From NCBI GenBank assembly GCA_015680685.1, contig MNCI01000415.1:441086-505085 (forward strand): 64,000 nt of DNA, written 5' to 3'. This document shows positions 17,460 to 48,224 of this stretch, piece by piece; the first letter of the stretch is position 1, and each line of letters starts with the position of its first letter. A program made the position numbers and the translations under genes. The DNA is from Gnetum montanum (Eukaryota; Plantae; Gnetophyta). The notes below the pieces were generated by a model. The model was not told the origin of the DNA, made no database searches, and saw only the letters and a program-made list of their open reading frames with translations.

Positions 17460-18374
17460 TTATGAGTGGTGAGATACCCCTACACTCAACCATACGAATA
17501 TGAGCGTAGCACACGTGATCTAGTTGAACTCCGTAGACTAAGTGCCTACACGCCCCATGGAACACTTAGGGTTAATTATTTGTTGTCTTTCTAGACTCAC
17601 TTGTAGTTGTCACGGTGTATGGTTAAGTAAGTCCAAGGTTTATGATTTTTATGGTTTTTATGTTTTATCTCCTATGCTATTGAGTTGAAGGGTTGAGAAA
17701 CTAATTACTAACTCTAACTAATGAACTAAGTCTAAATTACCTAGTGTTAGCATTCATTCCCACTTACCATACACACCCTGAACCGATGCAACTGTGGCTA
17801 CCAAACGCTAATCGTTGTTGGGATCACCACGTGTAATGCACGTGCTCAAAGTGGTTGTACTGAGGCACTTAACTAGGAGGAAAGGGTTGAGAAAATCTAA
17901 TCTAGCCTAAGTGCGATGAGCATCCGTTCCTTGATTATCCGTACACATCTTTAAATGCTCATAATCAAGTCATCCTGATTCTATGTTACTAGGAGATAAG
18001 GGTGAGAGAGAAAGTACTAAATAACATTAAATAAAATCCTATTCCATGCACTGCAAGGTTTATCTAGGAAGTTCTTCTTTATTTCTGTACACAACTTGTG
18101 TTCAGGTACAATGTTGCTCGAATAAAGATCCGTTCACTTTAGGACTCCTACTACGAGCACATGGAAAATATTCTATCTCTGGAGTGATCAATCTGCCATA
18201 GTTTTCCTACTTCTAGCCTAGGATGATGAAACAAGGGAGATCCACCTCTTATTTATAGATATGACGATGCACCGTGATATCGTGTACGCGATATCGCAGG
18301 GGACAACACGATATCGCGTACATGATATCATGACGGCCGCGATATCGCAGCCTGTGCAATATCGCGTCTCATAA
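17460..18374 (-). repeat. 5' LTR of element B
   Basis: Adjacent to the PBS; TATAAATA on the minus strand at ~18250-18257; GCGATATCGC palindrome cluster. Confidence 0.9.
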
Positions 18375-19514: not shown

Positions 19515-21080
19515 ATGGCTCGCAAGAAGATTGGAACATCAAGGGATCCTCCAAGGTAAGAAGGCAACAGGAGCATCATCAAATAAATCAAGCTCTTATC
19601 TACCTCAATTTTGCTCCAATAATGTTCAACATCACTTTGAGGTACCTTAAGCTGTATCCATTGTTTCTAAAAGGTCTCTAAATTTTCAATAGCATCATTA
19701 AAAGGAATTGATGGTCTTCTTTCAAGATATAAATTGGATTTTTTTTCATTATGATGAATTTTTGTATTCCTAAAATCCTCATTCAAGAATTCTATTACAA
19801 CATTATTATAACTAATGTTACTATTGGAGCTTCTTCTACCACTCTTGGAGGAATTTCGATTAAAGTATCCTCTCAAATAGTCAATGCCATTCTTCACATC
19901 TCTAATTCTAAGGTACATAGAGTTTCTATTCATTCTAAGACAAATATCTTTGCCAATGGTGTGTTTCCTATTACCCATAACAAGCTTTGCAATGTTCTCT
20001 TTGGAAAATCAAAACCTTTGAAAGGCATCAAAATACTTAGGAGTCAAATGGCCCAAGATGCTTCCACACTCTCCCTCATTATCCTATATAACATTGTTGT
20101 AAGGGAAGGACGTTACAATTATGTGTTACCTACCCAAGCATTTGTTCTCTACTATCTTCTCCTTGGACTATCACTAGCTTTAGGATACATTCTTTGTAGA
20201 GACATGTTGGGGTTGTTCCCCAATTAAAGAGTTTTTGGACATCCTCTTCTCATCAGTTATCTAATCAAATAGTCAAGGATTCTCATACTAGATATGCCTT
20301 TATTAAAAGGTAAGAGGAGCCTTGGTGAATTTTGAGAAAAGAGGATCATTGTACATATAGAGCCTAAAGTTCTATCCTTCAAACATCAGAAAGCTAGGAG
20401 GAAGCAAGCCTTGCTTGCATCTAGGGCCTCTTCTCAACTTAGGAGGTCTAAGTCCATGATTTTTTCAACCCTTAAGAAGGCACTAAAGCCATTTGCAAAC
20501 ACCTTTGGGATGATTGACAAAACTCTATCTTGCCTTTGTAAGAGAATGGATGCTATAGGAGTACCTGAACTAGTAGATGGACATTAGTTCATGGAGATCA
20601 TCACTCCTCCTATCTCTAATGATGAGAAGGTTATTCTTGCTCCTACCAAACATTCTATTGCAATCAAGCCATCTTGAGCTTATGAATCATTATATGCATC
20701 TAACTCTAAGAAGCTTATAGCACCATTGACATACATCCAAGGGAAGTCCATTCCTTATCATGATTATCTTGGATCCAATTCCTATTCTCATGAGGATATT
20801 TCTCAATCCTTTGAGTAGCATGAGATAAATAGAATTTTTGACATTGCATCTCATTGGAGATTAGATGATCCTATTACTTATCAGAGAAAGGATTCTTCCT
20901 CTTCCTCATAGCAAGCTTCATCCCAACTTTCATCATCACAATTTTAGGTGAAGCTTTGTCCTTGAAGAGCTACTATTAGAGTACATTCATTTGATGATGA
21001 TGAAGACAAGCAGCATGTCTCTAGCACTAGTACTAATAGTGATGAGGAGGAGGAGGAGACTTATAGATCCTCTCATGCAA
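19515..21080 (+). pseudogene. ENV-like / putative plant transposon protein (Transposase_32-like) ORF of element C
   Basis: MARKK start; LIQEFYYNI...VSSQIVNAILHI...IILYNIVVREGRYNYV...YYLLLGLSLALGYIL...GHPLLI pattern; acidic C-terminus; homologous to 44417-46057. Confidence 0.7.
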
Positions 21081-23020: not shown

Positions 23021-23629
23021 CTTTTTGAAAGCTTCATTCCTCCACTTGTAGGAATGAACAGGGGTTTGGAAGAGGTGTTCCTACATCAAAATTTCTAGTT
23101 GTTGTAATGAAATTATTTTATAAATACTCCATAACATTTATATTTACTAAGAAGATCTACCTAACTTATGGTTGAAAATGGTTCAATAACCACACTATAA
23201 GCTAGGGGATACACTAACAATCCAAGAGTACATTTCCAAATCAAACATGGACATATGAGATTTTATTATGAGAAAAGATTAAAATGCTAAAAATAATAAA
23301 ATAAATGAAATAAATAGTCATAATAAAGTAGAGCACTACTAATATTAGAAATCAATGATGATGGAAAAATAAGTGATTTTAAAAAGAAATAAAAGGGATT
23401 TTTCTTTGTTATATGGTAGTAAAAGGTTTTGTTAAATGTCTACATTGAAGGAGGAAGAATAAAATGGATATAAAAACAAAAAGAAAAAGTGAGATAAAAC
23501 TCTTAATTCTTACTACTAAAAAAACAAAGATATATTAATATTAGGGTGACAAAGAAGTTGACTAATTCTGAGCAATGTTGGAGATAACAGATCAAGTGAA
23601 GTATGAAAATAAAATCTATAGATGATGAT

Positions 23630-25182
23630 TGAAACACCGTGAAAATTGTGAGTCAGCCTCAGGCGAAGATTCGCGATTCAAACAAAAGTACATGAAAAAA
23701 TTCCAGAAAGAAGAACAAGGTAGGGCAACGCAAAGAGGCGCGCGGCATCAAGACTTTGGTTTCCTTTCGCAAATTTCTTATCTTACTATGTTTTCTGTCT
23801 TTACGCTATAATACGCAATGTAGCGTAATGATGCTCAGCGTAACATAGTCTGACATTAGAAGGCGGTTTACTTCAACAAATTTGATGAAGCCTAAGGCCT
23901 AAGCAGCGTAATATGCGACCCTCGTGTATTCTACTAAGTCTTTTGTCCAAGGGCAAAGTTATGCTCTGTTACACAAGGCAGCGTAACGAGCTTTGGAAAT
24001 GTCAAAAAAGGACCCAAAGGAAGCGCAACAGGTCAAGTTACGCTCATTACGCAACGCAGCGTACGCAGCATAATCCATTGCCAAGTTAACCATTGTTTAC
24101 GCTTCACTACACTTGGCAATGTGAACCAGCGTAAAGCAGCTTGAGTCCCTTACTTGTGTGCTTTATTACGCTCTAGTACATGACGCAGTGCGTACGAGTG
24201 TAATGTAGCCCAAAATCAATTAAGACATGCCCGATCCACATTTGTTATTCATACGCACAATACGTAGATGCGCGTATTGTGCATAGTCATGAATTTCAGC
24301 ATAAGGATGATCAAGTCAACGATCTTTCGAAAGGTTTGAAACACGTGTCAGCACAGCCATTCCTTTTCCACATGTCGTTAAACTTATAAATACCTCAGTT
24401 GGCAAGAGAGACAAGAGGGGACGATAGAAAAAGAGACACAGAGACACCAAGACAGAGAGAGAGCAGCATTTTTCTAGCAATCATTTGGCAGCACTATCTT
24501 CCTTCAGAGACAGGAGACATTTTGCCTGAGCATTGGCAGCAGGAGCGATTACCTCTTTGGCGAAGACACAACTTTCTCCATTGGTGATCGTCAGCAGTTT
24601 CGAGAAAAGACTACCTAAGGCAAAAGGAGCAGATCAGAGATCAAGAGATCATCTGGTGTGGTTTGTGAGTTTCTATTGGCCAGAAGCAGTTGATCAATAG
24701 ACGTCAGAACTTGACCTTCCTTGCATCCTATCTCTGGCCTACGAGGTAGATCAAACTCCATTCTGTATTTCTGCTTAGATAGTTTTCCTTGTTATTTTGT
24801 GTCTGCTTCACACAAGGCAATCGGGGTCTCCCCAATGTAACGTGATATACAAAATATTCATTTTTTAGGTCAAAGTCATAGATCTTGAAATCACGCGTTT
24901 CTCTCGTGTCTGATTCCTTTTTATCGCGTTAACATTATCATTATTGTAATTCATCTGCATTGTTTTTCTCTCATTTCGCAACTCATCGAATCAAATCGTT
25001 CAACGAAACATTCATAATCTCCATCAGTTTACTGATTTAGTAAGTCCTTGTCTAATCGACAAGACCGTTCAGGGCACCGCAGATTCGTTTTCTACAGCAC
25101 AGCCCTCGCACGGATCCGCGGTTAAGACTGTGTACACGGATTTTGTTTGGTATTCTAGTTGCCGACATTTTCCGTCGTTACA
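23630..25182 (+). repeat. 5' LTR of element A (1553 bp; TATAAATA at 24385-24392)
   Basis: tgaaacaccg...cgtcgttaca, repeated at 39648-41201. Confidence 0.97.
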
Positions 25183-25188
25183 GTTTTC

Positions 25189-25207
25189 TGGCGCTAGAAG
25201 GAGGGCC
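25189..25207 (+). promoter_or_regulatory. Primer-binding site complementary to the 3' end of plant tRNA-Asn(GTT)
   Basis: TGGCGCTAGAAGGAGGG, 6 nt downstream of the LTR. Confidence 0.9.
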
Positions 25208-25441: not shown

Positions 25442-28400
25442 ATGGATCCATCTTACACAACCACAACCGCCATGGTCGCCGCTGACTTGGATGCTACATC
25501 TGTGAATCCTATCACTGTCACCAGGCTAGCTCCTGGTGCAGCAGGACCTCAGGGACCATCACGTCGATCATTGAGGCTACAGGGAAAATACCCAATATTT
25601 ACTGTCGTGACCCTTGAGGAATACAACTTTATCTGTGTCAAGATCTAGGCAAAGATGGCCCTTAGCCGAGCTGAGATCGAGGCGAAGAGAAATTTCGAGA
25701 TGATCCATCGAGGAGGCCAAGATTTCACCCCGACAACCTATGACATCATCCCTTTAACAGACCAGCAACATGAAATTATAACACAGTTGGTCATGGCTAA
25801 GAGCCAGGCTGCACGAGCTATGACGGAACCCCAGAGTGGGGAGGAAGAAGATGATGAGTTTGCATCCCAGTCTGAGCATTCGTATCACACTCTTAGTCCC
25901 CATACTTACGTCAACCCATTATTCCCTCTTAACGGAGAGGCCGCCTCGCTCAATCTAGCCATGACCACACAAACACACATCCCTAGCAATTCCGTGAGGC
26001 ACTGTGCAGCCATCTGGGCTGCAAGTGCAAATACCCCACAACAACATGGGGGCGGCTTCATCACCACGTGGACTCAGCATTCTGGTGGCGGTTCCAACAT
26101 CCACCATGCCCCATTTCATCCCGCAGATCCAACCCCAAACCATATCCACAACTCGTCTGATGCAGACCTTATCGCTGCCGCCCCCTCTAACCCAGCAGTT
26201 CACCACCATTGTGCAGCCATAGATACCTACCCAACAGCCTACCGCGAATCAGTGAACCTATCCCACGACACAACAAAACCAGTCTACAGTGTACAGCGTG
26301 CAACCCTTGGTGGCACCCGCAACACATATCCCGTAGGTGATCCCGCAATATCCCTATCCTTATCCTGCGCAGCTGGAGGTGGCTAATCTCTCTTCCCAAA
26401 CCAGTGGACAGTGGTCTTCACAGGCACCCCTGCCTGCAGGGGTCCCCACCCCACCATCTACCGGCCAAACCATCCCACCATTTCCACTGCATGGCCCTGC
26501 TTTCCCAGGTCACCCCCTGCTCCTCCTGCATAGACACCTCCAGCAACAGGTCTAGACCACGCCTTCCTACTTATTCAAACCCTCACCAAGGAGGTTAGGC
26601 ATCTTAAGGTCGCTAGCTCAGACACTGTACAAATCATGAACTTTTACCAAGATGATCCCATTAGTCCAGCGGTCCCCATGTTGTCGTTGCCACCAGGGAT
26701 ATCCTTACCTCATTTTACCAAGTATAATGGGGAGGGGGATCCTAACGCTCACTTGGTCACCTTTAGATCCGAATCCTTGTTGTTGCAATAATGGCCTCAC
26801 ACGATTATCCGCGTGTTTGCTATGTCTCTGACAGGGAAAGCTCTAGATTGGTATCGAGCCCTCCCACGCTCTTCCATTTCAACCTTGGAAGAGCTTCTAA
26901 CACAATTCGTGACTCACTTTAAATACAACTTAAAGCTGGAAGTCACGTTAGATCAACTCATAGGAGTGAAACAAGATCCTCTCGAACCAGTCTAGAAGTT
27001 CATACAGCGCTGGAATGCTACTTTGAATGAAATTCGTGAGCCAATCGCGGACTCACATTTGCTGGCCATCTTCAAAGGATCAGTCAATGACTTTATCAAG
27101 TCAAAGCTATATTATCTTTCCCCAAACTCCTTACATCAGGCCTTCACTCAAATTAGAAGCATCCAAGATGCTGCGGAGGCCAGCAAAGACCTGGCGTATG
27201 TCACCTACAAAAATGCTCACAACAAAGGCAAGGACAAAGGTAAAGCGACAATGACGACAGTGGCTGCGCTGGCTAAGGGCACAAAGAACAAGAACAAGAA
27301 GGTACCTACGGTGCCTCCTAAGACCACGGCCAGTGCAAGTAGCACCAGCCAGGACACAGCTACCCCTGAAGGCCCCCCCCCCCCGGCCAAAACCAAACTT
27401 TGAGTGTAAAGATCGCTCAAAGTATACAGCCTTGCCTGTAAAACATTCAGAACTGTTGAAACAATTGTTAGGGGCCGGATACATTCAACCCAAAAGGGTA
27501 TCCGAAGAGGCTCTGAAGCGTCACAGACGTCATTGTGAACTGCTGAAGAATCCTTCTTTAGCCCTGCCTAACGAGTCACTAGTTCCAAAATCTTTCAGGC
27601 TAGACCGTTTCTGTGACTACCACCAGTTGTGTGGTCACGACACAAATTACTGCTGGGGGTTGAAGGATGACATTCAACGCATGATTGATGACGGTCATCT
27701 GAAACTAGACGGCAGTAGTTCGACGCGTCCAAAAAACCAAGCATTGCACGTGTATAAAGATTCGTTGAATGCAAACAATGCGCCTTATACAATCAATGTG
27801 GTGAGTACGGACAGTGAGAGGAAAGTACCACCCAAACAAACTTTTGTTTTGTGTGTACCTACCAACTCACAACAGGAGGGAAACCTTTCATCGATAGCCA
27901 GTGGTGTCTCAAGGCCACCATTCATCATTTGGGCACCTTCTCAGAATGCCACTCAGCCACGTAGTAACAACCAAGCTGTGGCCTCGTCCACGCCCACGCC
28001 TAGGGCACCCTTCATTCTCAGGGCGCCAAAACCACCGGCTGCTCCTCTCACGGAGGGGCAGACCTCTAACCAAAACCACCAACCAGTGCCCGACAAACAA
28101 AAGGGAGAGGATACACCTATCAGCGTTACAAAAGACCACTCTACGCTCGGCTTCCCTAAGCCTAGGCCCCTGGCCTCCGTGCCTTCGCCTGTACCTCAGA
28201 GGTAGGATAAAGGTGTAGAAACGCAGCCACCTCCTCTCGACGAGAAAAGGAATAACCCCCTGACTGACGTCATTCGACCTTGGGAGATTCGTCTCTTGGG
28301 ACGAATGGAAGAAGACAAGAGAAATAAACAACCTAGCCAAGAGAAGAACCTCCTCAACACATTTACGCAATTCAAACAGGCTCTGAAGCAAAAAAATACG

Positions 28401-29198
28401 ACGCTGAGCCTCTATGACCTGCTTATGACATCCCGAGAACACCGTGAGGCTATGGTCCGCATGCTGACATCCATATCTGTGGACGAAAGCTTACCAGCGG
28501 AGGAAGCAGCGATACACGCTATCATGTTTCCTTCTGAAGCTAAGCAACCTAAGCCTACCTTGCTGACCTTTCATGACGAATCTATCAAAGATGATCCTGA
28601 AAAAGGTCAAGTGACAACTGAACCCATGTTCATCACTATTCAGGTTGGTCAATACCTGATCCGGAGAGTACATGTGGACGAATGCGCAGCTGCAAACGTC
28701 ATTCCTTATCCCATCGTGGATAGGTTGGGTCTGGTCGACCAGATCATTCCCACGATGACAACATGCATAAAGTCGTTCAATGGAGCAAGGGTTCAGGTCA
28801 AGGGGACAGTGCGTATCGAATTTGTGGCAGGAGATCAATTCCCAATGGATGCCACATTCCTAGTCGTCGAGGAGATGCCTGGGATTAACTTGATCTTAGG
28901 GAGGTCCTGGTTAGCCCAGCTGAGGACGGTTTCATCACCGATACATTAGGAAATACACCTACCTTACGCAGGAGGGGAGGTCGTAATACGTGGTGATGAA
29001 ATCACCCCCAGGACTGTCAAAAACATTGAGGAAGAATGAGGTTCGGAGATAGAAACATCGCATGATCAGACCCATCTTCAAGTCCCTCAACAAATTGAAA
29101 CCAATGATGACAGTTTAGCCTGGGCCAACCTACCATTTCAAGATGGCGACGTGGAAGAATCAGACTGTAAACCCCTCCGCCCTTACGCAACACTAAAC
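25442..29198 (+). pseudogene. gag: gag-protease of element A (stops and frameshifts)
   Basis: YNGEGDPNAHL; FAMSLTGKALDWYRAL gag core; CDYHQLCGHDTNYC (CHHC) knuckle; protease RRVHVDECAAANVIP...NLILGRSWL. Confidence 0.92.
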
Positions 29199-29483
29199 GT
29201 AAAGGCCGTTAAGAAACAATTACGAATTAGCAGTTGAACTGAACGGCATTTACGCACATTATCATGTTTTTTTTACCAATTATCATTGTTTACGCTTAGC
29301 AGTCCATTTTCGCTCAATGCATATTTACGCTATAGAAATTCTAAATGTTTACGCTTGTCATTCCTTCCTTACACTATTACATTTCTGTTATGTATGCATT
29401 TACGTCTTTTGATCACTTTAGCCCAAATACGCAAAAAAATAAAAATACATTACCATCAATTACGCTCTCTACATTACGCAAAG

Positions 29484-29744
29484 GGGCCCGCAATGGCCTT
29501 AAACTAGCCAGGGCCCACAACGGCCTTAAACTAGCCATGGCCCACAACAGCCTTAAACTAACCGTGGCCTGCAATGGCCTAAAACTAGCTCCCAGATTAC
29601 GCAAACTCGCCAGATGGCCCGCAATGGCCTAAAACTAGCTGTGGCCCGCAATGGCCTAAAACTAGCTCCCAGATTACGCAAACTCGCCAGATGGCCCGTA
29701 ATGGCCTAAAACTAGCCATGGCCCGCAATGGCCTTAAACTAGCA
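29484..29744. repeat. 8 x 27-bp tandem repeat (tggcccgcaatggcctWaaactagcca) with two identical ~23-bp inserts
   Basis: Directly visible. Confidence 0.92.
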
Positions 29745-29998
29745 ATTCCATTCCGTCACAACATAACTCAGGCAAAATTGTTAACAACTACGCTTACGCT
29801 TTGCAGATAAAAATGCAAAAGATAAAAATTAAATAGACATTTAAAGACAAAAATCTTATAGCTAGTCTCTCAGTCATTCGCATAACCATTGTTAACAACA
29901 GTCAATAAAACCATGCATAAATCAAAATTACACATCTCCTTTGATGCCACTGTCACCAGTATCTCTCAAATCCGGTTCTAGTCCTAATAAATCGTCCT

Positions 29999-32900
29999 CT
30001 ATTGGGCCTTCTCTTCTGGGAAGTATTCCTTCATGAAGAATCCCCTCCTCATGAGGTTCTTGCTCTTGCACCGGCTCTGTAGGGGGACGCTCTTCATCAC
30101 TACGCCCCTTTTCTTATACCTGTTCCTCAGCTGACTCCTCTTCCCTATCCTCTTCGGGTACCTAGATATAGAAAAACACATTAGCTAGATAAAACTTGGC
30201 AACACAGTCAGAAAATTTAGACTTAGTCATGATTAAACTTACTCACGATGGCCCTGCTTCTGCAACAAAGGGAAGCTTTTCCAAGCCGGCCCATAGGCGC
30301 TCCATGATTTCATCCTCAGTCAGGTAAGACCACACTTCATCTCCTAGAGCAGCTCCAGCCTTCACCTTCCCTTTCTCCATGTTAGTCCAGCGAGGCAGGT
30401 CAGGGAAGAAAGTAGGGACGGTAGTCTTGTCCCCGGGGAGAGTCACCTCCCTTTCCGGGGACGCACTTACAGTCACCTGCTCTTGAAACTTCTTGAAGGC
30501 TTCGGATGCTCCAATGACGTCTAGGAAGACTCGCAAGGATTGGGCCTCAACGGTAGAATCACGATAATATTGACGATAAGCGATACTTTCATGCTTATAC
30601 AAATGCTTGTGGTCCTTTTTCTTCTACCCCCATTCCTGCACACTTGCACAGTAATCCCTCCAGTCTTGGCTTTTCTGAGCTAACAGCTCTATCTGCATCT
30701 GTTGCTCCACCAACACCCGACCGGTTTGCACGCTGTTCTTAATGGCGGTCCAATAACGGGAGTAGTCAATAACAGCAGTGCGCCCGTCTTCATCACCTGT
30801 TTCCCGCGCTTGTAGGAACTTGCATCGCGACTTTAGGTCCCCGACCTCTTTGGTCAGAGACTCATTCTTCTCCTCTAACCTCTGCACCCTTTTCCAGAGG
30901 TTCTCATTTACACCCTTACTCTTCCATAAGGACCATGTCGAGCGTAACGCACATTTACGCATCTCTTCATAAATGTGGTGTGGCACGACTGCCCCATCAG
31001 ATGGAGGCTCCACTGTGTCCAAATCAATGGGCTCCGTTGGGTCCCATCGAAGGCGAGCTCCTAACAGCAAGTATTGTCAATATATATGACACATTACTAC
31101 TGTACAATAAAATAAACCTTTTATAACTACAGTGTACTAGCCTCAAGATCGACGCGCTCGAGACGCTTGATCATATCGCTGACAACGCCTTTCATGAAGG
31201 TGAACTTGTTAGGAAAATCTCTCCATGCTCTGCTCACAGCGGCGGACATGGATGCATCCTCTTCTCCTGTAGCGTAGTCAAGTTAGAAACTCTAACTATT
31301 AACAAAATTCTACAAAGTTTCCAACACGATCATTACCTCTACCAGTAACAGTAGGAAGCTCCCCAACATCTTCTACCTCCTTCCTCTCTTCACAGACAAG
31401 AGCCTGTGTGTCGCTCGCCCTAACAGCTGGGGCCTCCTCATGCACAGGAATCCGTGCATGGCTCACACTAACTGCTGGGGCCTCTTTTTCTAAAACTGGG
31501 GCCCCTTCCCCGCGACTTAAGATTATTACCCCTGTTTCAGGGGTCAACTGCTCCATAACTTTTTCTGGTCATATCACATGATACGCTTAAGACACTTTAA
31601 AAAAAATCCTAAATAAACATTGCGTAATACAACTTGCAATATATTTCTTCCACGCTTACCAGGCGGAGGTTTACTCCAATGAACTCTGACTTCCATGGTT
31701 CGACCTGTGCCACTCCCAGGCTCCGCAAAGGGCTCGGTTATACGAAGCCATTTACGTCGAGCTGCAGGTTCTACAATTGCCGCCATCAAACGTTTCCCTT
31801 GTGAGGCATCGCCAGGGTAAGTAGGCATTATCCCGCCTACGCTGTCAAGGCCTCGCATTTGAGACACTGCCAAATCTCTGGTCGTTATAGCCAGAGAGTC
31901 CCTAATCCCTTCTGGGGGATCCTGTCCACGCGTAGTGCTGAGAATGTGGGTTATCCAAGGTCTGGATAGCTGGTCTCGGTCTTGCTGCACCCAGACCCCA
32001 TTCCTTTGGATAACCAAGAATTCAGCAAAACGCCGAAGGTAGGCTACGAAGAAGGCGTAATGCACATTGAAACGAGACTCGAGCTTCTTGCGAAGCCTGA
32101 TCATCTCAGTGCGCAGCCCCTCAGCAAAGTAGCTTACCCAGTTGAATTGGGTCCCTTCCTCGATAACCTCCCACATAATATGGGTCTGCTCTATGGAAAA
32201 GAATCACCCCTGCGAGAGTGTTTTGGGGAAAGCCAGGGCCTGAAAAAGGGGATAAACCGTCTTCGCAATTTCTAGTTTGATGCTTTCACAAGGGATCCCT
32301 TTAGGCTCCTTCGTGACCCCTACCCACTCCTCCAGCCATTTCTGGTAGTTGAGACTCCTCTTCGCCTTTTCCTCTATGGGGAGGCCGTCAGAGGGGACGC
32401 CGAAAAGGTCTTCAAAGAGCTAAGCATCAATGTCAAAACTTACATGCACGTGATGCATGCGTGTGCAAAAACGCTCTGCCCTTTCGCTGAAGGAGTTGAC
32501 CAGCATTAACATTTCGCTGGCGGGGACATCAGGGGTCGTGGCTAAAAACAAATGCATTAGCCTTGCTTCTCGTATCTTGGCAACCACCGCAACTGGGGCC
32601 GCTGCGTGGCCAAGCCAGCGTTGTGCATCCTTGATGTCACCATAGCGGAAGAGGAGGGTATTCGCCTCGCGGCCAAAAATTGTAAGGGTAATCTCCCGGG
32701 ATTCCCTGACTGAGCAATGTAAAACACAAGTCAAACAAAACACTATCACGCAACATTCACAATTCACAATTACACCACGCAACAATAGGATACGCAGTAG
32801 TTTTACCAGGTCCAAATGGCAATGGAAATGGAGGAAGTTTCCTCTGCACGTCCGCAACGGTAAGGGGTGGATCCAAAGTCCAGTCGTCATGTAGCCACCT

Positions 32901-34012
32901 GAGATTCTAGCAATTCTCGAAAGCGTCAGCATAAAGGGTGGGGTATTCATGAATGTCGAAGCCGATCTGCCCCATAACACCAGCATGTATGTTACTAGTA
33001 GAGGTAAACGCCTTTATTGCAGTTTCAGTCCAGGTTAAGGTATCACCATCGCCTACTAACCTGTTCTCGTGGATGAAAAACTTGTACCATACCATGTAGG
33101 TTCATCTTACACTTCACAATGAACTCAGAAAATAGACATATAATGACAAAATAGCCAACAAAACTGCTTACCCGCCTGAGTAGTACACTGTGCCTGGTGG
33201 GTTCTGGAAATAGGTTGAGACATGGCGGGCCACGAACAAAGTGTTGTATGCGTGATAGCAACTAAACTGGGCCATTTCCCAGATCCAGCCTAAGCACCTC
33301 AAACCTTGGGCGCTAAGGTCTCGGTCTTTGGGACGACCAGTATTGATGGCTCCGTCTATCAAGAAGGCCAAAATTCCCTGTGCGGAACCCACTAACAGGT
33401 GCTCCAAAATGGCACCAGCAACATCGCCTAACAAATTTGACCATATAATAACGTTGTAGTTACGTAGTAAAAACTGCAGAAACTCCAGCGCGCCCTTTCG
33501 AAACCATATGGCCCTCCCATGCAACCGAGTATGCGAGGGAGGGACATTAGGCACGATTGGGTTTATGCAGCACAAAACCCCAACGATATCTAGGACGATT
33601 AAGACAGGCTTTAGCATAACACTGTACAGAAAACGCAATAAACAGATCAACGTCTAGATTCACATTTACATGTTTAATTATAGAAAATCTACAAACTACG
33701 CTTAACCATTCATGCCGAAATCGCCCAAACCCTTGCAATAGTGCAAGGTTTGTCCCCGACAACGGTGATAAACGCACACCTTTAAACCCTCATCATAACG
33801 CAAGGTCCATAGTCTAAAACCCTCGTTTACATGAAACAACGCTATAGAAATAAACACTGCTGAAACAACACAAGTATGTAAGGAATGGCCTACCAGTTCA
33901 AAGGCATAGGGTCCCTCACTTCGACCACCGCCTACGAAGTGCGCTGCAGATTCTCTTGCATCTCATCGATTTTCGTCAATTTCGCGTTCTTCCATTTCAC
34001 TTTCGGCGCCAT
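29999..34012 (-). pseudogene. Antisense multi-exon accessory gene of element A: FCP1/NIF HAD-like domain + PMD-like domain + coiled coil, ~1020-1080 aa reconstructed
   Basis: Exons (minus): 34012-33894, 33621-33172, 33087-32807, 32709-31660, 31564-31337, 31266-31138, 31060-30247, and 30161-29999 (last one tentative). GT..AG introns join the exons in frame; the intron 2 acceptor reads TG. Five internal stops, no frameshift needed. Homologue at 58938-62190. Confidence 0.85.
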
Positions 34013-34495
34013 CGTCACAGTCTCAAAACTCTCACAGTTTCACACTTTCACGTCTTTGCAAATTATGCGCTCTAAGCTTCTACTCCTCTTCCTCTCGCTT
34101 TGTAACAGTTAGAAATTCGAATTTGCGATAGCCAACAGCCCATCCTTACTGAAAACTGCTTACTTATATGCAAGATTTAACTGACTTGATACCTGATTTC
34201 AGCAAAAACTTACCCAAATGCTGGTGTCAGTATGATCTGGAACCTGATGATCAAGGCATTAATTGCACTAGATACCGCACGCATTACGGTCCGAAACGAA
34301 CCTAAACTACTGTAGCTTATCTCCTCGTAATCAGGTCTCATTAATTACAGGTTGTTCGCAAACTTTAAAATTCAGTTACCTTTATGCAGCAATGTCACGT
34401 CACTTCCTGTACACTAAACTAAACATATTCGTTCAAAGCTTATAGCATCAAACTTAGTATCTGTCTAATTACTCGCGCATTTGACACTTTTGCAG

Positions 34496-37400
34496 GATAA
34501 TCCACAGATGGACGAAATGTTGTCTGCATCGCTAGTTTTAGCAAGCCCACATGGTGAAATCGTTAGACAATTTGATCCCACATTAATAGAAACTAATCTA
34601 TCCCTTGATGATGTAATTATAGCCACATCAGAAACATCTCCAGACTGGCCAGAACAATCGACACGCATGCTAGATCTGGAAGCTCGAGACGTAACCGAAG
34701 ATCCACTCAATGAGATTTCTATGGTTACGCATAGCGGCGAGACCAAAACTCTCAAGGTTAGTTCTCTATTAAACCAAAAGACACATGATGACATAAAACA
34801 AGTCCTCCAGAGTAACATCACAGTGTTTGCATGGTCATACGAGGATATGCCAGGACTAGACCCAAGATTAATTCAACACAACATAATTCTAGATCCTCAT
34901 ATCAAAGCCGTTAGACAAAAACGAAAGATCAAGCCAGAAGTCACGCTAACAGTACGTGATGAAATCACTAAGCTGTACCAGGTAGGTTTCATTCGCGTAG
35001 TTGATTACTCATACTGGGTATCCAATATTGTAGTAGTTCCCAAAAAGACTGGAGGAATATGTATTTGTATAGACTTTCGGGACTTGAACAAAGCTACAAT
35101 CAAGGATAACTTCCCATTACCGAGTATCGACCAATTGGTGGATACAACTGCTGGGCACGGGCATTTGTCCTTTATGGATGGCTTCTCAGGCTATTATCAA
35201 ATATGCATTAACCCAGAACATCAGCTAACAATGACATTTATGACATCCTGGGGGACCTTTTGCTACACCATGATGCCTTTTGGCTTAAAAGCACTGGATC
35301 AACATATCAACAAGCTATGACGTACATCTTTAGCGACTACCTCTTAGGAAGGCTGAATGATTATGTTGACGATATAGCTGTTAAGTCTTTAAAGTTCGAA
35401 GATCATTCAGAGGACCTAGAGTTAGTCCTCAAAAGATGCTCTAAATATGACCTCCGACTTAACCCAAAAAAGTGTGTGTTCAGAGTCAAAATCGGACACA
35501 TGCTGGGTTTTGTGGTATCGGAAGCTAGCATACGTGTAGACCCTGACAAAGTCAAAGCCATTGTTGAATTGGCACCCCCTACAAGTCTTAAGAAATTATG
35601 CGGACTACAGGGAAGGTTACAGTTTATCAGGCGGTTCATCTCGAGATTAATCGACAAGCTACACCCTATGCAACATTTGCTTAAGAAGGGGGTTAATTTC
35701 GAATGGACAGATGATTGTCAGCGTGCGTTCGACAGCTTGAAGCAGGAACTTCAACACTTGTCAATAGTTTTCCCGCCGCAAAGGGATCAACCATTCTATA
35801 TCTATATTGCAACTTCAGACGTAGCCTTAGCGCGTTACTCTGTCAAAGGAGGGATGATGGGTCAGAAGTACCCATCTACTACTTGAGTCACGCTCTATGT
35901 GCGTATGAAACGAGGTATAACGAAGTAGAGCGTAACTGCTTAGCGTTAGTATTTACGCTCAAAAAGTGCAGACATTATCTTTTCCATAGCCAAGTTAACA
36001 TCATCTGTAAAAATAACATCCTTAGGGCCATTATGCATAACTTATACAAAAGTAGCAAAATAGCTCGTTGGAAGGCTATCACAGCAGAATTCGACTTGTA
36101 TTACATTGGCCAATCTTCTACGAAGGGCCAGGCCATAGCCAACCAATTAGTAACATCTCCTATTGACAGTCAGGTAACCATAGAGCCTGAATTTCCAGAC
36201 GAATATGTACATAGTGTAAGCCCTATCTTAACAGGCCCCGAAGCGACGTTGTATTTCGACGGAGCTTCAACCGCTAGAGGTGGTAGTGCCACCACCGTTA
36301 TTACGCTATCACCTGAGGATGTGCGTCTCCACGCTTATCGCTTGACCTTCCCCTATACGAACAATGTGGTAGAGTACGAGGGGCTCCTCAGAGGATTACT
36401 AGCTGCAAGTGAACTCGATGTTCTACACTTGGCAGTTAGGGGTGATTCGATGCTCGTTATCAATCAAATCACAGGAGTCTACGCCTACAAAGCTGCACAT
36501 TTGCAGCCCTACTGCGATATGGCTAAAGATCTTCTGAAGCAATTCACGACCATTGATGCCCAACACGTGCCACGAAATGATAACACACTGGCCGATGCAC
36601 TGGCTACTCTGGCCTTAAACGTGCCTTCACATCTACTCGACACTTGTCCTGCTTTAATAACAAATTGTACAGGTCCTATCGTTTAGGTGGCACAAATATC
36701 TGCTCTTCTCGAAGAAAGCACGCCAGAATGGTATGACAACATTAAAACTTACCTCTTACAAGACGAGCTACCGCACGATTTGACACGTGCGTAGAAAGAT
36801 GCAATCCACAATCAAGCTAGGCAGTACGTAGTCATAGGAGACAGTACTCTCTGTAGACGCTCTTTTGATGGTGTGCTGCTTACCTGCGTTAATAAGGACC
36901 AAGCATAGCGTATCGTTGGCGAGGTTCACGAGGGATTATGCGAAGGACATGTAGCACCATGGGTTATGGCTTCAAAAATTCACCGCTTAGGGTACTACTG
37001 GACATGCATGGAAAAAGATTGCCTGACAAAGGTTAAAACTTGTGACACGTGTCATCGTCATGTAAATCTTATACACGTGTCGCCTATAGAGTTATATACA
37101 ACTCAGATAACATGGCCCTTTCAACGATGGGGACTAGACATTATAGGTCCCATCACGCCGAAATCTTTCGCAGGTCATAGCTTCATAATTACCGCAACTG
37201 AGTACTTTATGAAGTGGGTAGAAGCTATTCCTTTAAGGAAGATCACATCTCAACAGATTTGCCATTTCATCTTAGATAACATTATAACCAGATTTGGTCT
37301 CCCGATGACTATCGTGACCAACAATGGGCCACAGTTTAGTAGTACGGAAACCAAATCCTTCTGTGATAGCCTCGGCATTAAATAATCTTTTTCCTTGCCC

Positions 37401-37970
37401 TACTACCTACCAGCGAATGGTCAAGCTGAAGCAATAAACAAACCCATCATCAATTTGCTCAAGAAGATGCTCGACAACAACAAGAGACGGTGGCATGAAA
37501 AAATCCTCTATGTGCTATGAGCGTATCGTACTACATGTAGAACGACTACAGACAGTACACCCTATAGCCTAGTCTATGGATCTAAAGTAGTGCTACCTCT
37601 CGAGTTGCAAATTCCTTCTCTGAGAATGGTCCTCTCCACGATTATAAATGAGGCTCAACACACCGAGTCCCGGATTATGGATTTGGACTCAGTAGAAGAG
37701 AAGCGAATACAGATGGTTGATACAATCGAAAAGTATCAAGACAAGCAGAGGCAAAAGCATCGTCACAATCTTCAGCAGCGTCCGATCAAGAAAGGAGATT
37801 TAGTTCTCAAGGTTGTTTGCGAACCAGTAGGCAAATTCTCTGCAAACTGGGAGGGCCCTTTCTTGGTGACTGATGCGTATAACAGTGGAGCATTCAAGTT
37901 AGCGGATGTTAACGGCAACGAGTTACCAAACCCTATCAATCATATATATCTGAAGCGGTACTACATATAA
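34496..37970 (+). pseudogene. pol: pol of element A: RT, RNase H, archaeal-type RNase H (aRH), integrase
   Basis: FAWSYEDMPG, CIDFRDLNKA, SFMDGFSGY, YVDD; aRH LYFDGAS...NNVVEYEGL...GDSMLVINQ; INT zinc finger, WGLDIIGP, NGQAE, WEGPF. Two frameshifts and several stops. Confidence 0.95.
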
Positions 37971-38004
37971 TTGCATCTCCAGTGTGAATATCAGGTATGG
38001 CCAC

Positions 38005-38495
38005 CATCATTCGCTACGATGCTAAATTGGCAACAAACGTCCGCTACGACGTAAAACTGGCACTCCCCTCATGCGTCCGCCATGACGCTAAACTGGTACT
38101 GACCGTCCGTCACGACGCAAAACTGACACATTGTAACCATCTGCTACGATGTAAAACTGGCAATGTTGTACAGGTCTGCCAAGATGGAAAACTGGCATCT
38201 TTTGCATGCGTCTGCCACGATGCTAAACTGGCACCGGTTGTCCGTCATGACATAAAACTGACAAAGGTAAGTAACCGTCTGCTGAGACGTAAAACCAGCA
38301 TAGACTTGTCCTTGGGTCATGACATAAAACTGACATCCACAGCATGGTCTGCTGAGACCATAAATCAACCCCGTCACCGTCCGCTACGATGTAAAACTAG
38401 TATTTCTCAGTCCGCCCAGACTTTAAACTGGGACCATGGTCTACTGAGACTTAAAATCAGCAATGACAGTCTCCCAGGACTTAAAACTGGAACTC
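38005..38495. repeat. Degenerate tandem array (ccgYYaYgaYgYWaaactggca) immediately after integrase
   Basis: About 15 aaactgg/aaactga units; explains ORF 37997-38626. Confidence 0.85.
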
Positions 38496-39631
38496 CCAAC
38501 TGCTCTCATGCAACTCAAGCGAGCGTGATTATCTCTGTGCAGCTGCAAGACACATGGGATGGAACACTGGAACCATTCCAGCATCACTACCCCACCGGCA
38601 TCCTACTGATTCCTCGGATGTGCTGAAGGGCATACTACTGACCCCTCGGAGATACCATCACCGCACCCATTTTAGTGGTGGCACCTCTGAGAGGTTCATT
38701 TCGCCGTCTGAAGCCCCAAAGGCATTCGCATCAACTGCGGCTTTGGGGATCTCTGCTCATCATCACTATCAGGCTCTGGCTTCACAGATTCATCTAGCCG
38801 GTTCTTTGCATGACCAGTCAGATGCGCTGAGTCTGATGTTCTTTGCCGGCGATATGCTGGGCCGAGCATTAAGGGTGAAAACTCGGGCCTCGTGCTACAG
38901 TTCCTCCTTCATGGCCTGACCAATTTATCTTGCCTCTAATAGCACTTGTTTCAACAACCTCGCCTACAATTCGCACGGACAATGGTATCCTCTATTTTCT
39001 TCTTTGGTTGCAGGTTACTTGCTTCGAGGATGTCATTCAAAAATGCATTCATCTGAGCGGTCAAGTACAAACAACGTTTTGAAATAGCTACTCAGGTTAG
39101 CTTATCCACTTAGAAGTGCATCCCTGTTCCCCTTATAATCCTACCCTCAGCTCTTACTGTACTTCATCTCTACCATCTGCTTCCCGTTTGCAAAAATCTA
39201 CGCACGCAGCACTTGTTTTCCACATTCGCATTACAATCAAGTCCATAAATCGGCGTAACGCAATTCACCTAACGGACGCAAAAAAAATGGGGCCAGCAGA
39301 ATGGGTGAAACACATCCACCCAGGCCATGCAGACGCAACACAATTCATCTATGCAACCCCTTCATCTACAAAATGACGGCATAACTCCATGCTAACACAC
39401 CTGCAGGAGAAAGCCTAATTGCTTATGCATGAAGAAGACGTCCTTACTCATTTGAGTCTTCCTGGAACCTGTTTCCTCTTGTACCATCTTATCTCCTACT
39501 TCCTCCATCTTTGCTCTTCTATGTTGACAGGGCGACACTTGAGTAGCCATTGATGAACGCTATTAGTGTTTCTGCCTCTCCGGTGTTTCGTATTCTCTGT
39601 CGATGTCTTTCGGGCAAGCCCTCTAACCGTC

Positions 39632-39647: not shown

Positions 39648-41201
39648 TGAAACACCGTGAAAATTGTGAGTCGGCCTCAGGCAAAGATTCGCGATTCAGA
39701 CAAAAGTACATGACAAAATTCCAGAAAGAAGAACAAGGCAGGGCAAGGTAAAGAGGCGCGCGGCATCAAGACTTTGGTTTCCTTTCACAGATTTATTATC
39801 TTACTATGTTTTCCATCCTTACGCTATAATATGCAATGTAGCGTAATGACGCTCAACGTAACATAGTCTGACATTAGAAGGCGGTTTACTTCAACAAATT
39901 TGATGAAGCCTAAGGCCTAAGCAGCGTAATATGCGACCCCTCGTGTATTCTACTAAGTCTTTTGTCCAAGGGCAGAGTTACGCTCTGTTACGCAAGGTAG
40001 CGTAACAAGCTTTGGAAATGTCAAAAAAGGACCCAAAGGAAGCACAACAAGTCAAGTTACGCTCATTACACAACGTAGCGTACGCAGCGTAATCCATCAC
40101 CAAGTTAACCATTGTTTACGCTTCACTACGCTTGGCAGCGTGAACTAGCGTAAAGTAGCTTGAGTCCCTTACTTGTGTGCTTTATTACGCTCTAGTACGC
40201 GACGCAGTGCGTACGAGTGTAATGTAGCCCAAAATCAATTAAGACATGCCCGATCCACATTTGTTATTTATACACACAATACGCAGATGCGCGTATTGTG
40301 CGTAGTCACGAATTTCAGCATAAGGATGATCAAGTCAACGATCTTCCGAAAGGTTTGAAACACGTGTCAGCATAGCCATTCCTTTTCCACATGTCGTCAA
40401 ACTTATAAATACCTCAGTTGGCAAGAGAGACAAAAGGGGACGACAGAAAAAGAGACACAGAGACACCAAGACAGAGAGAGAGCAACATTTTTCTAGCAAT
40501 CATTTGGCAGCACTATCTTCCTAAAGAGACAGGAGACATTTTGCCTGAGCATTGGCAGCAGGAGTGATTACCTCTTTGGCGAAGACACAACTTTCTCCAT
40601 TGGTGATCGTCAGCAGTTTCGAGAAAATACTACCTAAGGCAAAAGGAGTAGATCAGAGATCAAGAGATCATCTGGTGTGGTTTGTGAGTTTCTATTGGCT
40701 AGAAGCAGTTGATCAATAGACGTCAGAACTTGACCTTCCTTGCATCCTATCTCTGGCCTATGAGGTAGATCGAACTCCATTCTGTATTTCTGCTTAGACA
40801 GTTTTCCTTGTTATTTTGTGTCTGCTTCACACAAGGCAATCGGGGTCTCCCCAGTGTAACATGATATACAAAATATTCATTTTTTAGGTCAAAGTCATAG
40901 ATCTTGAAATCACGCGTTTCTCTCGTGTCTGATTCCTTTTTATCGCGTTAACGTTATCATTATTGTAATTCATCTGCATTGTTTTTCTCTCATTTCGTGA
41001 CTCATCGAATGAAATCGTTCCACGAAACAATCATAATCTCCATCGGTTTACTGATTTAGTAAGTCCCTGTCTGATTGACAAGACCGTTCAGGGCACTGTA
41101 GATTCGTTTTCTCCAGCACAGCCCTCGCACGGATCCGCGGTTAAGACTGTGTACACGGATTTTGTTTGGTATTCCAGCTGCCGACATTTTCCGTCGTTAC
41201 A
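39648..41201 (+). repeat. 3' LTR of element A (1554 bp)
   Basis: Direct repeat of the 5' LTR, followed by the TSD. Confidence 0.97.
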
Positions 41202-44416: not shown

Positions 44417-46057
44417 CTAAGGATTATAATCACTAGCCTCAATGGCATCATCTGAATCCTCATCAGAAGTAGTTGTAGCACAAGAACATGTGTAGGTCTC
44501 ATCATCATCATCATCATCATTATCAGTGCTAGTGTTGGAGACATGTTGCTTGTTGTCATTGTCCAAAGATGGTATCTGAACTGGAACCCTCTATGAACAA
44601 AGCTTCACTCAAAATTAAGATGAAGCTTGTAGATCATACTAGGATGGAGCATGCTCAAAGGATGAGGAAGCATCCTTTGATAAGTGATAGGATCAACAAG
44701 TGTCCACTAGGAAGAAGTCCCAAAGATGCTCTCCATGGCCTACTCCTCAAGTATCTACAAAGCATCATCTTCATGATGCAAACTAGGTCCAAGCTACATA
44801 GGATCATAAAACTCCCCTTGGACACGTGCTAGTGGCATAGTAGGCTCCTCTAAATCAAATTCATTTCCTAAGTCATAAGCTTGGGAAGGCTTAGCTACCG
44901 CTGAGTGTTTAGGTGAGGCTGGACAAGCCTTCTCACTATCTGATATGGAAGGAGTGGTGATCTCCTCAAACTACTACTTATTTAGAGGAACATGTACTCC
45001 CGCTGTATACATTCTCTTACAAAGGTAAGAGAGATTCTTGTTAATCATCCTAATAGTACTAGCAAAGGGTTTAAGCAACTTTGTTAGAGAAGATCTCGCT
45101 TGGCCACCAATAGATTTAGATCTTCTCAACTAAGGAGAGGCTTGAAATGGTAATGTAGATTTCTTCTTCCTTGATTTTTGAGGTCTAGTATTGGTTTCTA
45201 CATCTTTAGCATGGGCGGAGCTCAGCTTTTCTAAATAGTCACCAAGGCTCCTCCTGCTTGTAAGCAAAGGCATGTCAAGAATGAGAACACCTCTTTGTCA
45301 AATTAGCAAATTAATAATGTAAGGATGCCTATAGATTATCTCCTTGGTGAACAAACCCAACAGGTCTCTGTAGAGAGTATGATCCAAGTCCAAAGGTTTT
45401 CCTATGAGAAGGAAATAGAGAAAAAATTCTTGGGCTAGTAAAAAATAGTTATAACTTCCTCCTTATATAATGATATTATATAAAATAATGAAAGAGAGGA
45501 TGAAAGCATCTAGAGCCATTTGACTCCTATAAATTCTTCCACTACATAAAGACACTGACCCCCCAAACAAAGCATCGCAAAATTCATCTTGGGAAATAGC
45601 AATCACACCATTCATGAAAATGTCATTTATGGAATGAATGATGATCCTAAAAACATCAGCATTGAATATCCCAAGAATTGCATTAACTACTTGAGAAGAA
45701 ATGTCAATCAACATGCCACCAACCATGATAGTAAAAGCCCCAAGAGAAGCATTTGTAATCATAATGTTACTATAGAACTTTCTTTTGAGAATTTCAAGCA
45801 CATAAAAATCCAAAAAAAATGAATGAAACCCAATTCAAAACTTGAAAGAATCGCATCAATTTCTTCTGACAATGCTTCTAGAAATAAAGAGAATATTCAA
45901 AGATAATAAAGACAGTTTGAGTTACCTCATACCAATGCTAGGCCATAATGAATCTGAATTGTGGAGAATAGGTGCTTGCAGTGTTGGAGGAAGCTTCCTT
46001 TAACTTCTTGCTCTTCCTCAGTGGTGGCCTTAATGTTCCAACCTTTTTGTGGGCCAT
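44417..46057 (-). pseudogene. ENV-like / Transposase_32-like ORF of element D
   Basis: KRKFYSNIMITNASLGAFTIMVGGMLIDISSQVVNAILGI aligns with the element C ORF; ends in a poly-Asp tract. Confidence 0.72.
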
Positions 46058-46429
46058 GAATTTTGAAGAAAAATGCACAACTCACTATTGTTGGAGAAGC
46101 CCTTGTCATCTACCCTTAGTCATCTATGCTTGGACATGGAGGAATGAAGGAGATATGAAGGATTGGATTTATATAATTATGGGTGTCGAGGGCTTTTTAT
46201 GAAAATATAGACATCTCCTTTGAGATATAGATGTCTATGTTATGTCTAGCAATAATTAGGTAGATGTATCACTTGAAAAGTAGATTTCTCTAAGTAGATG
46301 TCTATCTTCTTACAAAGATGTCTTCAAGTAGTCATCTCAACAAGAAAAGATTTGGGATTTTCTGCCAATGATGATAGTCTTAAGAGATATTAAAAATGAA
46401 TTGATGACTTACCTCTACTTACCTTTCTT

Positions 46430-48224
46430 GCTTAAGAAAATGAAGGTGCCCAAGGAGCTTGAGAATGAGATCCCTCTTTTGAGGTACCTTCTCTTATGCA
46501 AATTTCTTCTATTTTTAAAGACTGGCTTCCCTGAACAAATTTTTTGAAGATGATTCTCTTAATATCATCTTTATTCTTTTTTATTTTCCATACCTTCCTA
46601 ACTTCCTTGCCTTTTTGATTTGTCCACCCTTTCTTATTGTCTTGCATAGTTTCTTTTCTAGATACATCTAGATAAGACTAAGGAGTTTTGTGATATGTCC
46701 CAATGTTCATATGATAATACTTCAAGTTGAAATTCAATTAATAATGCCCAAATCTATTACAATAATAACACTTAACCTTTTTTTTAAAGTTATCAACCCT
46801 TGGAGTTGCTCTTTGTTTGAACGTAGTGCTAGTAGTAACCTTAATTTTTGAAGTGGCCTCTTCTTTGGATAAATTTTGTGTGGATGCTTATTCTTGTTGA
46901 TAACATCCTAGTCCACTTTTATCATTTGGACTTCTTCCTTGCCCAAGAACTATTCAGAGAGATTATTTTCCTTTGACCAACTTTTCATTTGAAAGTTTAA
47001 CATACAAGTTCTTCCTTGATCTGCTCATAGGACAAGGTTAGTTTTTTATTCTCAACCCTTAGGTCTAAGGTTTCTTTTTTGAAATCTAAAATTTTCATAT
47101 TTAATAAAGACACATCTTGATCCTTGTTTTTTAATTCCTTCTTTAACTTGATACAAATATTTTGAAGAGATAGAAGTTCATTGCACAAGAGGTCATACAT
47201 TTCTTCATCAATTTACATTTGATCATCATCATCAGATAAGCTAGTATCCTCATCTATGAGAGCCATACAAATGAGATGTGAATCTTTTGAAGTGTCATCC
47301 ACCTCTTCTTCACTTTGCTCTCCATCATTCCAACTTATGTAGAAGTTGGTTATTTTGACATCCATGTTAGTTTTTTCTTTTCATTGCAACCTGTCATTGC
47401 TAGGACATTTGGAAGCCACATGGCCTCTTCCACCACATAGCCAACATTCTATTGAAAAAATTTGAATTTAAAAAATTTTTACCTTTATCTTTACCTTTGG
47501 TGTTGGATTGGTTGGGTCCTAGTTGATTAAAGTTCCTTCCTTTTCTTGCTAGAAGCCACCTTTGAACCCTTCTTGATAGAAGAGATATTTCTTCCTCACT
47601 TCTTCATTTTTTGTTCAATTAGTTCCTTCTCTTTAGATGCTAATTTCAAGGTGATAGGCTTTTCTTTTATTGCTTCTACACTTATCAGATTCATTTCATA
47701 AGTAATAATAGCACTTTGGAGCTCTTCAAATTTTAAGATAAAAAAATATCTAATTTATTCCATAGTTGTAATCTTAGGTCTAAATTTAGGTTGTAGTGTT
47801 CTAATCATTTTTATGATTACAATTCTTTTAGGCAAGTCCTTTCCTGTACCCCTAATTGCTACAACTAGATCATTCGCCCTAGAAAACATACTCTATAATC
47901 TTTTCACCTTCCCTCATTTTCAGTTTTTCATATTCACTTTGCAAAATTAAAAGATTTTATTCTTTGACCATGGAAGTTCCCTCATAGATATAAACAATTT
48001 TTTTCTTTAGAGTTAAACATAAACTTTTGTCTTTCTTTAGGCATCCACTTGCTTCATGGATTAAGGGCCTTTGATGCACTATCGATGTGTAGTATGTATC
48101 CTTCAAGAATTGACTCCAATACCTCAAATTCCATCAACTCAAATAAGCCTTGCATCCTTATCTTCCAGTAAGCAAAATCAAGCCCATTGAACATCAGTGG
48201 CTTTATGTAGGATGTCCCCTCCAT
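46430..48224 (-). pseudogene. gag: gag of element D
   Basis: MEGTSYIKPLMFNGLDFAYWKIRMQ; CWLCGGRGHVASKC knuckle; VWKIK. Confidence 0.88.

Follow-up and report, generated by a model that had tools for sequence, protein, structure and literature searches.

The retrotransposon and its predicted antisense gene

The window (the whole stretch of 64,000 nucleotides of Gnetum montanum DNA analysed here) contains a 17.6-kb Ty3/gypsy retrotransposon, with LTRs that are 95% identical (K2P 0.048; 62 transitions and 10 transversions in 1,555 sites) and a 5-bp TSD. On the plus strand its layout runs from gag-PR over a gap of ~5.3 kb to RT, RNase H, archaeal-type RNase H and integrase, and the gap is filled by a predicted gene, here called the cargo gene, which is antisense to the genes of the element. 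The LTRs and the TSD agree with the initial annotation of this DNA, which had placed the cargo inside an LTR element. The features of the element are the following.

23630-25182, plus strand: 5' LTR (TG...CA), with the TSD ATGAT upstream at 23625-23629
25189-25205, plus strand: PBS-like sequence (sequence reading), beginning with TGG, 6 nt past the 5' LTR
25649-29237, plus strand: gag and aspartic protease, interrupted by stops and frame changes (Retrotrans_gag, E=5e-7; Asp_protease_2, E=0.009, under cut-off)
29199-34495, plus strand: candidate Ogre-type sense intron (splice-site reading), from a phase-0 GT to a phase-0 AG, spanning the whole cargo gene
29485-29767, no strand: 77-bp tandem repeats directly beyond the predicted stop of the cargo (repeat search)
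34496-37970, plus strand: pol, with RT, RNase H, archaeal-type RNase H (RVT_3) and integrase (Pfam RVT_1, RT_RNaseH, RVT_3, Integrase_H2C2 and rve)
39648-41201, plus strand: 3' LTR, followed by the TSD ATGAT, with a purine-rich tract upstream

The RVT_3 domain (E=9e-20, Pfam) lies between RT_RNaseH and rve, which places the element in the Tat clade, and the setting apart of gag-PR from RT-RH-aRH-INT is a trait of Ogre. The candidate sense intron would connect gag-PR with RT in phase, at a length about 19 times the average of the Ogre intron; no sense joint across 29199-34495 is seen in the RNA reads, whose depth is low. The PBS-like sequence is presumably a match to tRNA-Asn, and no tRNA genes are found within the window. 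Only ~470 bp separate the 5' LTR from the gag frame, and the extra gene lies between PR and RT, unlike the 5' or 3' extra ORF of Ogre. Between pol and the 3' LTR there are ~1.7 kb, in which the two longest frames are both on the plus strand and have no Pfam match; minus-strand frames of at least 100 codons are absent from this region, and with them the antisense Transposase_28 ORF of the Retand type, where the corresponding region measures 2.9-6.6 kb. A repetitive frame with recurring 'VRHDAKL'-like units, also lacking a Pfam match, was noted past the integrase (37988-38626, plus strand). Judged by its sequence, the element belongs to Tat but differs from both Ogre and Retand in where its extra gene lies.

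Several other repeats are present in the window. Two more gag remnants of the same lineage (210-972 and 4287-5024, minus strand) are 46-54% identical to the gag of the element, and two duplicated integrase remnants (51427-52231 and 53461-54267, minus strand) lie ~2 kb apart and are 74% identical. At 11297-18317 there is an LTR pair (91-93% identical, at a spacing of ~6.2-6.4 kb) whose minus strand contains gag-like and protease frames, and a related copy lies at 62604-64000; the pair has no match with the RT of the 17.6-kb element in tblastn and may be non-autonomous. In addition, a Transposase_32-like ORF at 19733-20224 (plus strand; E=1e-5, under cut-off) has an inverted relative at 44502-47105, and the element to which it belongs, with a zinc-knuckle gag at 10682-11020, seems to be interrupted by the 11297-18317 insertion.

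The cargo gene is modelled with eight exons, all predicted and all on the minus strand.

33894-34012, minus strand: exon 1, with the ATG at 34012 and one premature stop
33172-33621, minus strand: exon 2, FCP1/NIF domain, stop-free, with an acceptor AG before 33621 and a donor GTAAGC after 33172
32807-33087, minus strand: exon 3, with an acceptor TG at the homologous site and an in-phase AG before 33060
31660-32709, minus strand: exon 4, a 350-codon domain conserved in the second copy (tblastn E=5e-32, 29% identity)
31337-31564, minus strand: exon 5, linker
31138-31266, minus strand: exon 6, a short conserved block (E=2e-7 against the second copy)
30243-31060, minus strand: exon 7, a coiled-coil-like stretch (E=2e-8 and 6e-8 against the second copy)
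29928-30161, minus strand: exon 8, acidic tail and stop

Altogether the model comprises 3,309 nt, or 1,102 codons, with no frameshifts and seven premature stops (63 and 65 in the shifted frames). The predicted protein would consist of a short N-terminus, the NIF domain, a 350-residue domain, a linker, the coiled-coil-like stretch and the acidic tail. The exons have a GC content of 47-52% and the introns, which are T-rich, one of 27-39%. Intron lengths are 70-97 nt, with one of 272 nt, and in five of the seven they are not multiples of 3, which reconciles the genomic frames of the exons. Six of the seven introns are GT-AG; in intron 2 a TG stands at the homologous acceptor site and an in-phase AG follows 27 nt further on. 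A TATA-like word and a GA-rich leader are found upstream of the ATG at 34012. Since the splice sites of the model were picked by eye, the second copy described below serves as an independent check on it, and the gene is probably spliced about as modelled. The domain reported by the initial annotation at 33172-33621 coincides exactly with predicted exon 2; its description as a cargo domain stands, but the domain is one exon of a predicted gene of ~1,100 codons and not a lone captured ORF.

For the rest of the protein, exon 4 has no match in Pfam (E up to 5), PDB or Atlas, so that its assignment as PMD-like or Transposase_32-like is unsupported, although it may be a remote homologue of PMD; hhalign gives 0.1% against the Transposase_32-like ORF of the window. 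Exon 3 was tried as the C-terminal helix of the NIF domain and set aside, since adding it failed to raise the score of the NIF profile. Exon 7 has weak bZIP/coiled-coil matches in Pfam, under cut-off.

The NIF domain and its catalytic residues

The stop-free minus-strand frame at 33653-33171 contains every peptide quoted in the initial annotation, and several searches converge on the domain named there. PF03031 (NIF) matches exon 2 at E=6.8e-5, with 23 bits against a cut-off of 21.8 (Pfam), and NIF or its clan is found in all 10 of the 10 best family-assigned matches in the Atlas (top score 0.92); both results are independent of the two-copy profile. A profile of 28 NIF homologues, containing no window sequences, gives the exon 60.8 bits over residues 4-145, with -1.5 for the best of 200 shuffles, and 56.4 bits when the three homologues found with the exon itself are removed, a test that is partly non-independent because most of the homologues came via a profile including both window copies. 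Searched over the six frames of the whole window, the same profile matches the exon 2 site and a site at 58.9 kb, and no others. Exon 2 thus almost certainly encodes an FCP1/NIF domain, as far as sequence comparison can tell.

An exhaustive protein search with the exon gave four matches. Among them, three are NIF proteins (E 7e-4 to 1e-3), and the fourth, a repetitive protein without a Pfam family, was discarded as spurious. With an alignment of two found homologues and the two window copies as query, 27 NIF proteins were recovered among 4,048 candidates. None passed among the 36 candidates of a word-indexed protein search with the exon, nor among the 1,824 candidates obtained with the two-copy alignment against longer proteins (both weak evidence), and none of 134 pattern matches in metagenome contigs was confirmed. 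The sole match of the exon alone in a PDB sequence search, chloroplast NdhC at E=0.01, was taken as chance.

An alignment-guided model of exon 2 (pLDDT 78.6) has a HAD Rossmann-like core, in which motif I is followed by a small beta insertion. Foldseek matches it to CTDNEP1 and SCP1-3 at E ~1e-5, and SCP1-3, the top structural matches, align with Z 12.7-13.2 and rmsd 2.3-2.5 A over 128-129 residues; Tim50 is also among the fold matches (Z 10.9). The structural comparison proposed in the initial annotation therefore yields the SCP1-3/CTDNEP1 fold, a result not independent of the alignment because the single-sequence model failed (pLDDT 46.6). The identity of the domain to SCP1 is 12-14%. Among relatives of solved structure, UBLCP1 ranks first in the sequence-profile comparison, ahead of SCP1 and FCP1, and in the viral library giant-virus NIF-like phosphatases rank best. 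In a tree of NIF homologues both window copies are on a long branch and no plant host gene is included, so the tree names no donor; nor is a host donor gene found among the homologues recovered. Capture of the NIF domain from the host is plausible from these comparisons.

The catalytic motifs were compared at six key positions, which align with the Scp1 and UBLCP1 motifs in profile alignments. In the 28 homologues these are occupied by D in 28, N or D in 28 (N 25, D 3), S or T in 28, K in 27, D in 27 and D in 26. The main copy has D10, V12, S60, R107, A130 and R131 (numbered from the Met at 33617), and the second copy has E, A, S, a motif III obscured by a frame change, G and H. Motif I therefore reads DIVG in the main copy and ELAG in the second, fitting neither DxDx(T/V) nor DxN; the Ser of motif II is kept in both; the Lys of motif III is Arg107 in the main copy; and motif IV is AR and GH respectively, versus DD. 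These are the degraded motifs that the initial annotation had described in the main copy and in its copy E (58938-59392, plus strand), and they are confirmed in both. As for the loss at motif I, the altered site is real, but the closest relatives by sequence mainly have DLNG, with Asn in 25 of 28, and not DxDxT; the clearest losses are therefore the DD of motif IV and the Lys. In Scp1 the first Asp of motif I is the phosphoryl acceptor, and the second contributes to metal binding and may be the acid/base (PMC3215212, accessible part).

C>T or G>A changes in Asp codons do not lead to the codons seen at motif IV, GCC-CGC and GGT-CAC. Because the same sites are changed in both copies and the changes are unlike methylation decay, the motif loss likely predates both families, and the 'pseudo' state is likely ancestral to the two copies, to go by their sequences. 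It is quite probable that the exon-2 domain would not be a conventional phosphatase.

The second copy and the RNA reads

The second copy, referred to below as copy B, is an old and diverged one, whose cargo, RT and integrase have the same layout as in the main copy.

58938-62259, plus strand: copy B cargo gene, with the NIF exon at 58938-59392 and exons 3-7 (profile, tblastn)
54850-53940, opposite strand to the copy B cargo: RT and integrase remnants of copy B

The copy B cargo is antisense to the RT and integrase remnants and upstream of them, across ~4 kb of repeats. Tandem and spaced repeats at 55203-55650 and 56382-56897, between the RT and the cargo, widen the gap to this length. GT and AG are found at introns 2-6 of copy B and AG at acceptor 1, and its introns have 19-24% GC. 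The N-terminal half of its NIF exon reaches 16.5 bits against PF03031, under the cut-off of 21.8. The cargo DNA of the two copies is near-unalignable (blastn gives two matches of <40 bp), and the protein blocks are colinear. Exon 2 matches copy B at E 2e-20 (tblastn), and no translated intron has a match below E 0.06. Exons 1, 3, 5 and 8 are not significant against copy B, with 15, 21, 192 and 121 of 300 shuffles, respectively, equalling the real score; exon 3 is borderline.

Both of the two copies compared are broken: each has stops, and copy B has frameshifts as well. Over 97 codons the NIF domains are 52% identical, with a pS of 0.85, which is saturated, and a dN of 0.40. For comparison, the dN between the copies is 0.36 for the RT N-terminus, 0.26 for the integrase and 0.52 for all cargo blocks, values that, like that of the NIF domain, are skewed to conserved parts because the blocks were picked by tblastx. 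Within the main copy the cargo has 7 stops in 1,102 codons and gag-pol has 9 in ~2,070, the latter in segments cut to avoid frameshifts; this similar density makes it likely that the cargo frame was open when the main copy was inserted. No terminal inverted repeats are found around the cargo, though those of an old insertion could have been lost to decay, and within the window the cargo has no DNA match elsewhere. From these sequence comparisons, the cargo is very probably the element's own gene, under selection.

Four RNA runs of the same species were compared with 28000-35500 and four with 33060-33660, which makes six different runs from a list of eight. Most of the reads are <95% alike and so come from other copies. 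All four runs over 33060-33660 give reads on exon 2. Run X1 has a depth of 58-101 at 33165-33430, with the first mate almost only on the plus strand and reads that are mostly 80-95% alike; these are likely RNA from the coding strand of the cargo, the library being of type 'OTHER' with an uncalibrated strand rule. Reads of related copies cease matching at the predicted edges 32712-32713 and 33166 and continue T-rich (minus strand), so that conservation ends where the predicted exons end. No splice joints are listed in the six runs, and edge reads of exons 2 and 4 continue into intron-like sequence; this either speaks against efficient splicing in those samples or reflects unspliced or read-through RNA. 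Among the 40 read differences listed, of 120, 28 fall in exon 2 and 16 of these are third-position synonymous, an excess with p=0.008 against one third and p=0.015 against random transitions. Among the same 40 of 120, the only difference in motif IV is synonymous, at 33225, suggesting that the transcribed relatives are also without the DD.

Possible roles and relation to known elements

We propose that the 0.5 kb upstream of RT would contain an antisense promoter from which a spliced cargo mRNA is made. Being antisense to the genomic RNA, the introns of the cargo would be left in it by the spliceosome and so persist through retrotransposition, which is the logic of retrotransposition reporters (PMC12786077, accessible part). 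As in Ogre, gag-PR may be joined to RT by splicing of the genomic RNA, which would take out the entire cargo. In the protein, the NIF domain would bind a host protein and the remaining part would tether or oligomerise it, and such an adaptor would likely aid the transcription of the element or its escape from silencing. That the product is a non-catalytic adaptor acting on transcription or silencing is an evenly poised proposition. Tim50, which is non-catalytic and peptide-binding, has the NIF fold in common with the cargo and shows that this fold has been reused for binding before, although its gene context differs. PP7L is catalytically inactive. PMD-plus-phosphatase modules act in Arabidopsis transposon silencing (PMC7156037, accessible part); the likeness is an analogy only, because exon 4 has no PMD or Transposase_28 match. 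A bolder reading, which we consider rather doubtful, is that of an undescribed Tat sublineage with the PR-RT intron as a cargo bay, in which a counter-silencing factor made of pseudophosphatase, new domain and coiled coil mimics or sequesters host CTD- or PMD-phosphatase complexes. The locus would then be spliced on both strands, the sense cut yielding Pol and the antisense cuts the regulator.

Several other explanations have to be weighed against the adaptor. The dead domain might be a decoy for the phosphorylated Pol II CTD, shielding the CTD repeats from host CTD phosphatases. The rank of SCP1-3 among the structural matches fits this, as does a catalytically dead Scp1 mutant that still binds CTD peptide (PMC3215212, accessible part), and Arg107 and Arg131, basic where Lys and Asp stood, could hold the phosphate metal-free. 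However, Scp1 binds phospho-Ser5 via Mg2+, which Asp206 helps to hold (same source), and the residue equivalent to Asp206 is replaced in the exon-2 domain. The low identity to SCP1 also weighs against the decoy, the sequence neighbours being the DLNG subfamily and UBLCP1, and the model, built on an alignment of NIF homologues, is tilted to the NIF fold. Binding of the phosphorylated Pol II CTD by the putative domain is thus somewhat disfavoured, and the decoy is unlikely. The cargo could also be a passenger, the gene of a separate, older mobile element or of a host locus, inserted into the PR-RT gap and carried along without benefit to the retrotransposon. Its intron-rich structure and high exon GC look gene-like, and are typical of DNA transposons and host genes; the copies are on a long branch in a tree without a donor. 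In Ogre the stretch between PR and RT is spliced out as an intron, and an insertion there would be tolerated (PMC6317226, accessible part). Yet neither terminal inverted repeats nor a DNA match elsewhere in the window accompany the cargo, it has stayed antisense and upstream of RT in two families whose synonymous sites are saturated, and its frame was about as intact as gag-pol when inserted, all of which makes a passenger distinctly unlikely.

The remaining two explanations concern the catalytic sites. An enzyme with altered chemistry or substrate would use Asp10, Ser60 and the new arginines; the main copy has retained the first two, the replacement of Lys by Arg is a conservative one, and the domain is conserved as much as RT. 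Nevertheless, in copy B the nucleophile position is occupied by Glu, and the second Asp/Asn of motif I and both aspartates of motif IV are absent in both copies, which differ there (V/A, A/G, R/H) in a way that suggests relaxed constraint at the catalytic sites. We regard such an enzyme as very unlikely. Neutral decay of a once-active captured phosphatase gene after insertion would agree with the age of the two copies, both with stops and copy B also frameshifted. It is at odds with a stop-free exon 2 in the main copy, with changes at the same sites in two independent copies that are unlike methylation decay and leave the adjacent residues kept, and with the synonymous change at 33225 as the only motif IV difference among the 40 of 120 listed; it is highly improbable and largely refuted.

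Compared with the FCP1/SCP family (PF03031; SCP1-3, CTDNEP1, UBLCP1 and the DLNG-motif subfamily P0002-P0029), the cargo is alike in its near-full-length profile match, motif order, Ser and predicted fold. It differs in the replaced second residue of motif I, Lys of motif III and DD of motif IV, in its long branch, in its fusion to a long C-terminal part without a known family, and in being encoded by a retrotransposon.

We take the PBS of this element to be tRNA-Asn-like. As far as the accessible portion of PMC6317226 describes them, Ogre elements have the RT-RH-aRH-INT order, the separation of gag-PR from RT, the large size and the 5-bp TSD in common with this element, whereas their PBS is mostly of tRNA-Arg, their PR-RT gap averages 274 bp (here ~5.3 kb with a gene), and their extra ORFs lie in sense on the 5' side or in antisense on the 3' side, with PMD. 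Retand, Grande and RIRE2 share with it an antisense gene, a coiled-coil-like part and tandem repeats nearby (PMC11963269, PMC4408406, accessible parts). In these elements, by contrast, the ORFs lie between pol and the 3' LTR and contain Transposase_28 with a coiled coil, and for Retand the text of the paper makes no mention of introns (PMC11963269); the cargo has no Transposase_28 or PMD match. Ogre and Retand are known from angiosperms and have the same order from gag-PR to integrase (PMC6317226, accessible part). The nearest functional precedent is the AlkB demethylase of orchid gypsy elements, which are large and related to Tat and have likewise fixed a regulatory enzyme domain of host type, but its catalytic residues are kept and its activity was shown, while here they are replaced (PMC9289625, accessible part).

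According to the accessible parts of PMC4408406, PMC11963269 and PMC7264820, the extra ORFs known in Tat elements are located either on the 5' side of gag or on the 3' side of pol, and they encode PMD or Transposase_28 with a coiled coil. In the literature searched, with subscription papers outside reach, neither a NIF/FCP1 cargo in an LTR element nor a cargo at this position was found. NIF is absent from the eORF domain table of PMC6317226, which needs E<=1e-10 in five elements, and NIF-type terms are absent from the five of its seven supplementary files that were searched. The main survey considered extra ORFs of at least 250 codons and classed them as 5' or 3' only (PMC6317226, accessible part); with this threshold and these classes, such surveys would probably overlook most genes that are divided by introns and located between PR and RT.

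Extra ORFs of Tat elements are common in plants, and where they come from and what they do is still under debate (PMC7264820, PMC4408406, accessible parts). Unlike most of them, the cargo has a domain from a recognisable, transcription-linked phosphatase family, so that its binding and activity are directly testable. If the adaptor reading is true, this pseudoenzyme would join the short list of retrotransposon-encoded regulators.
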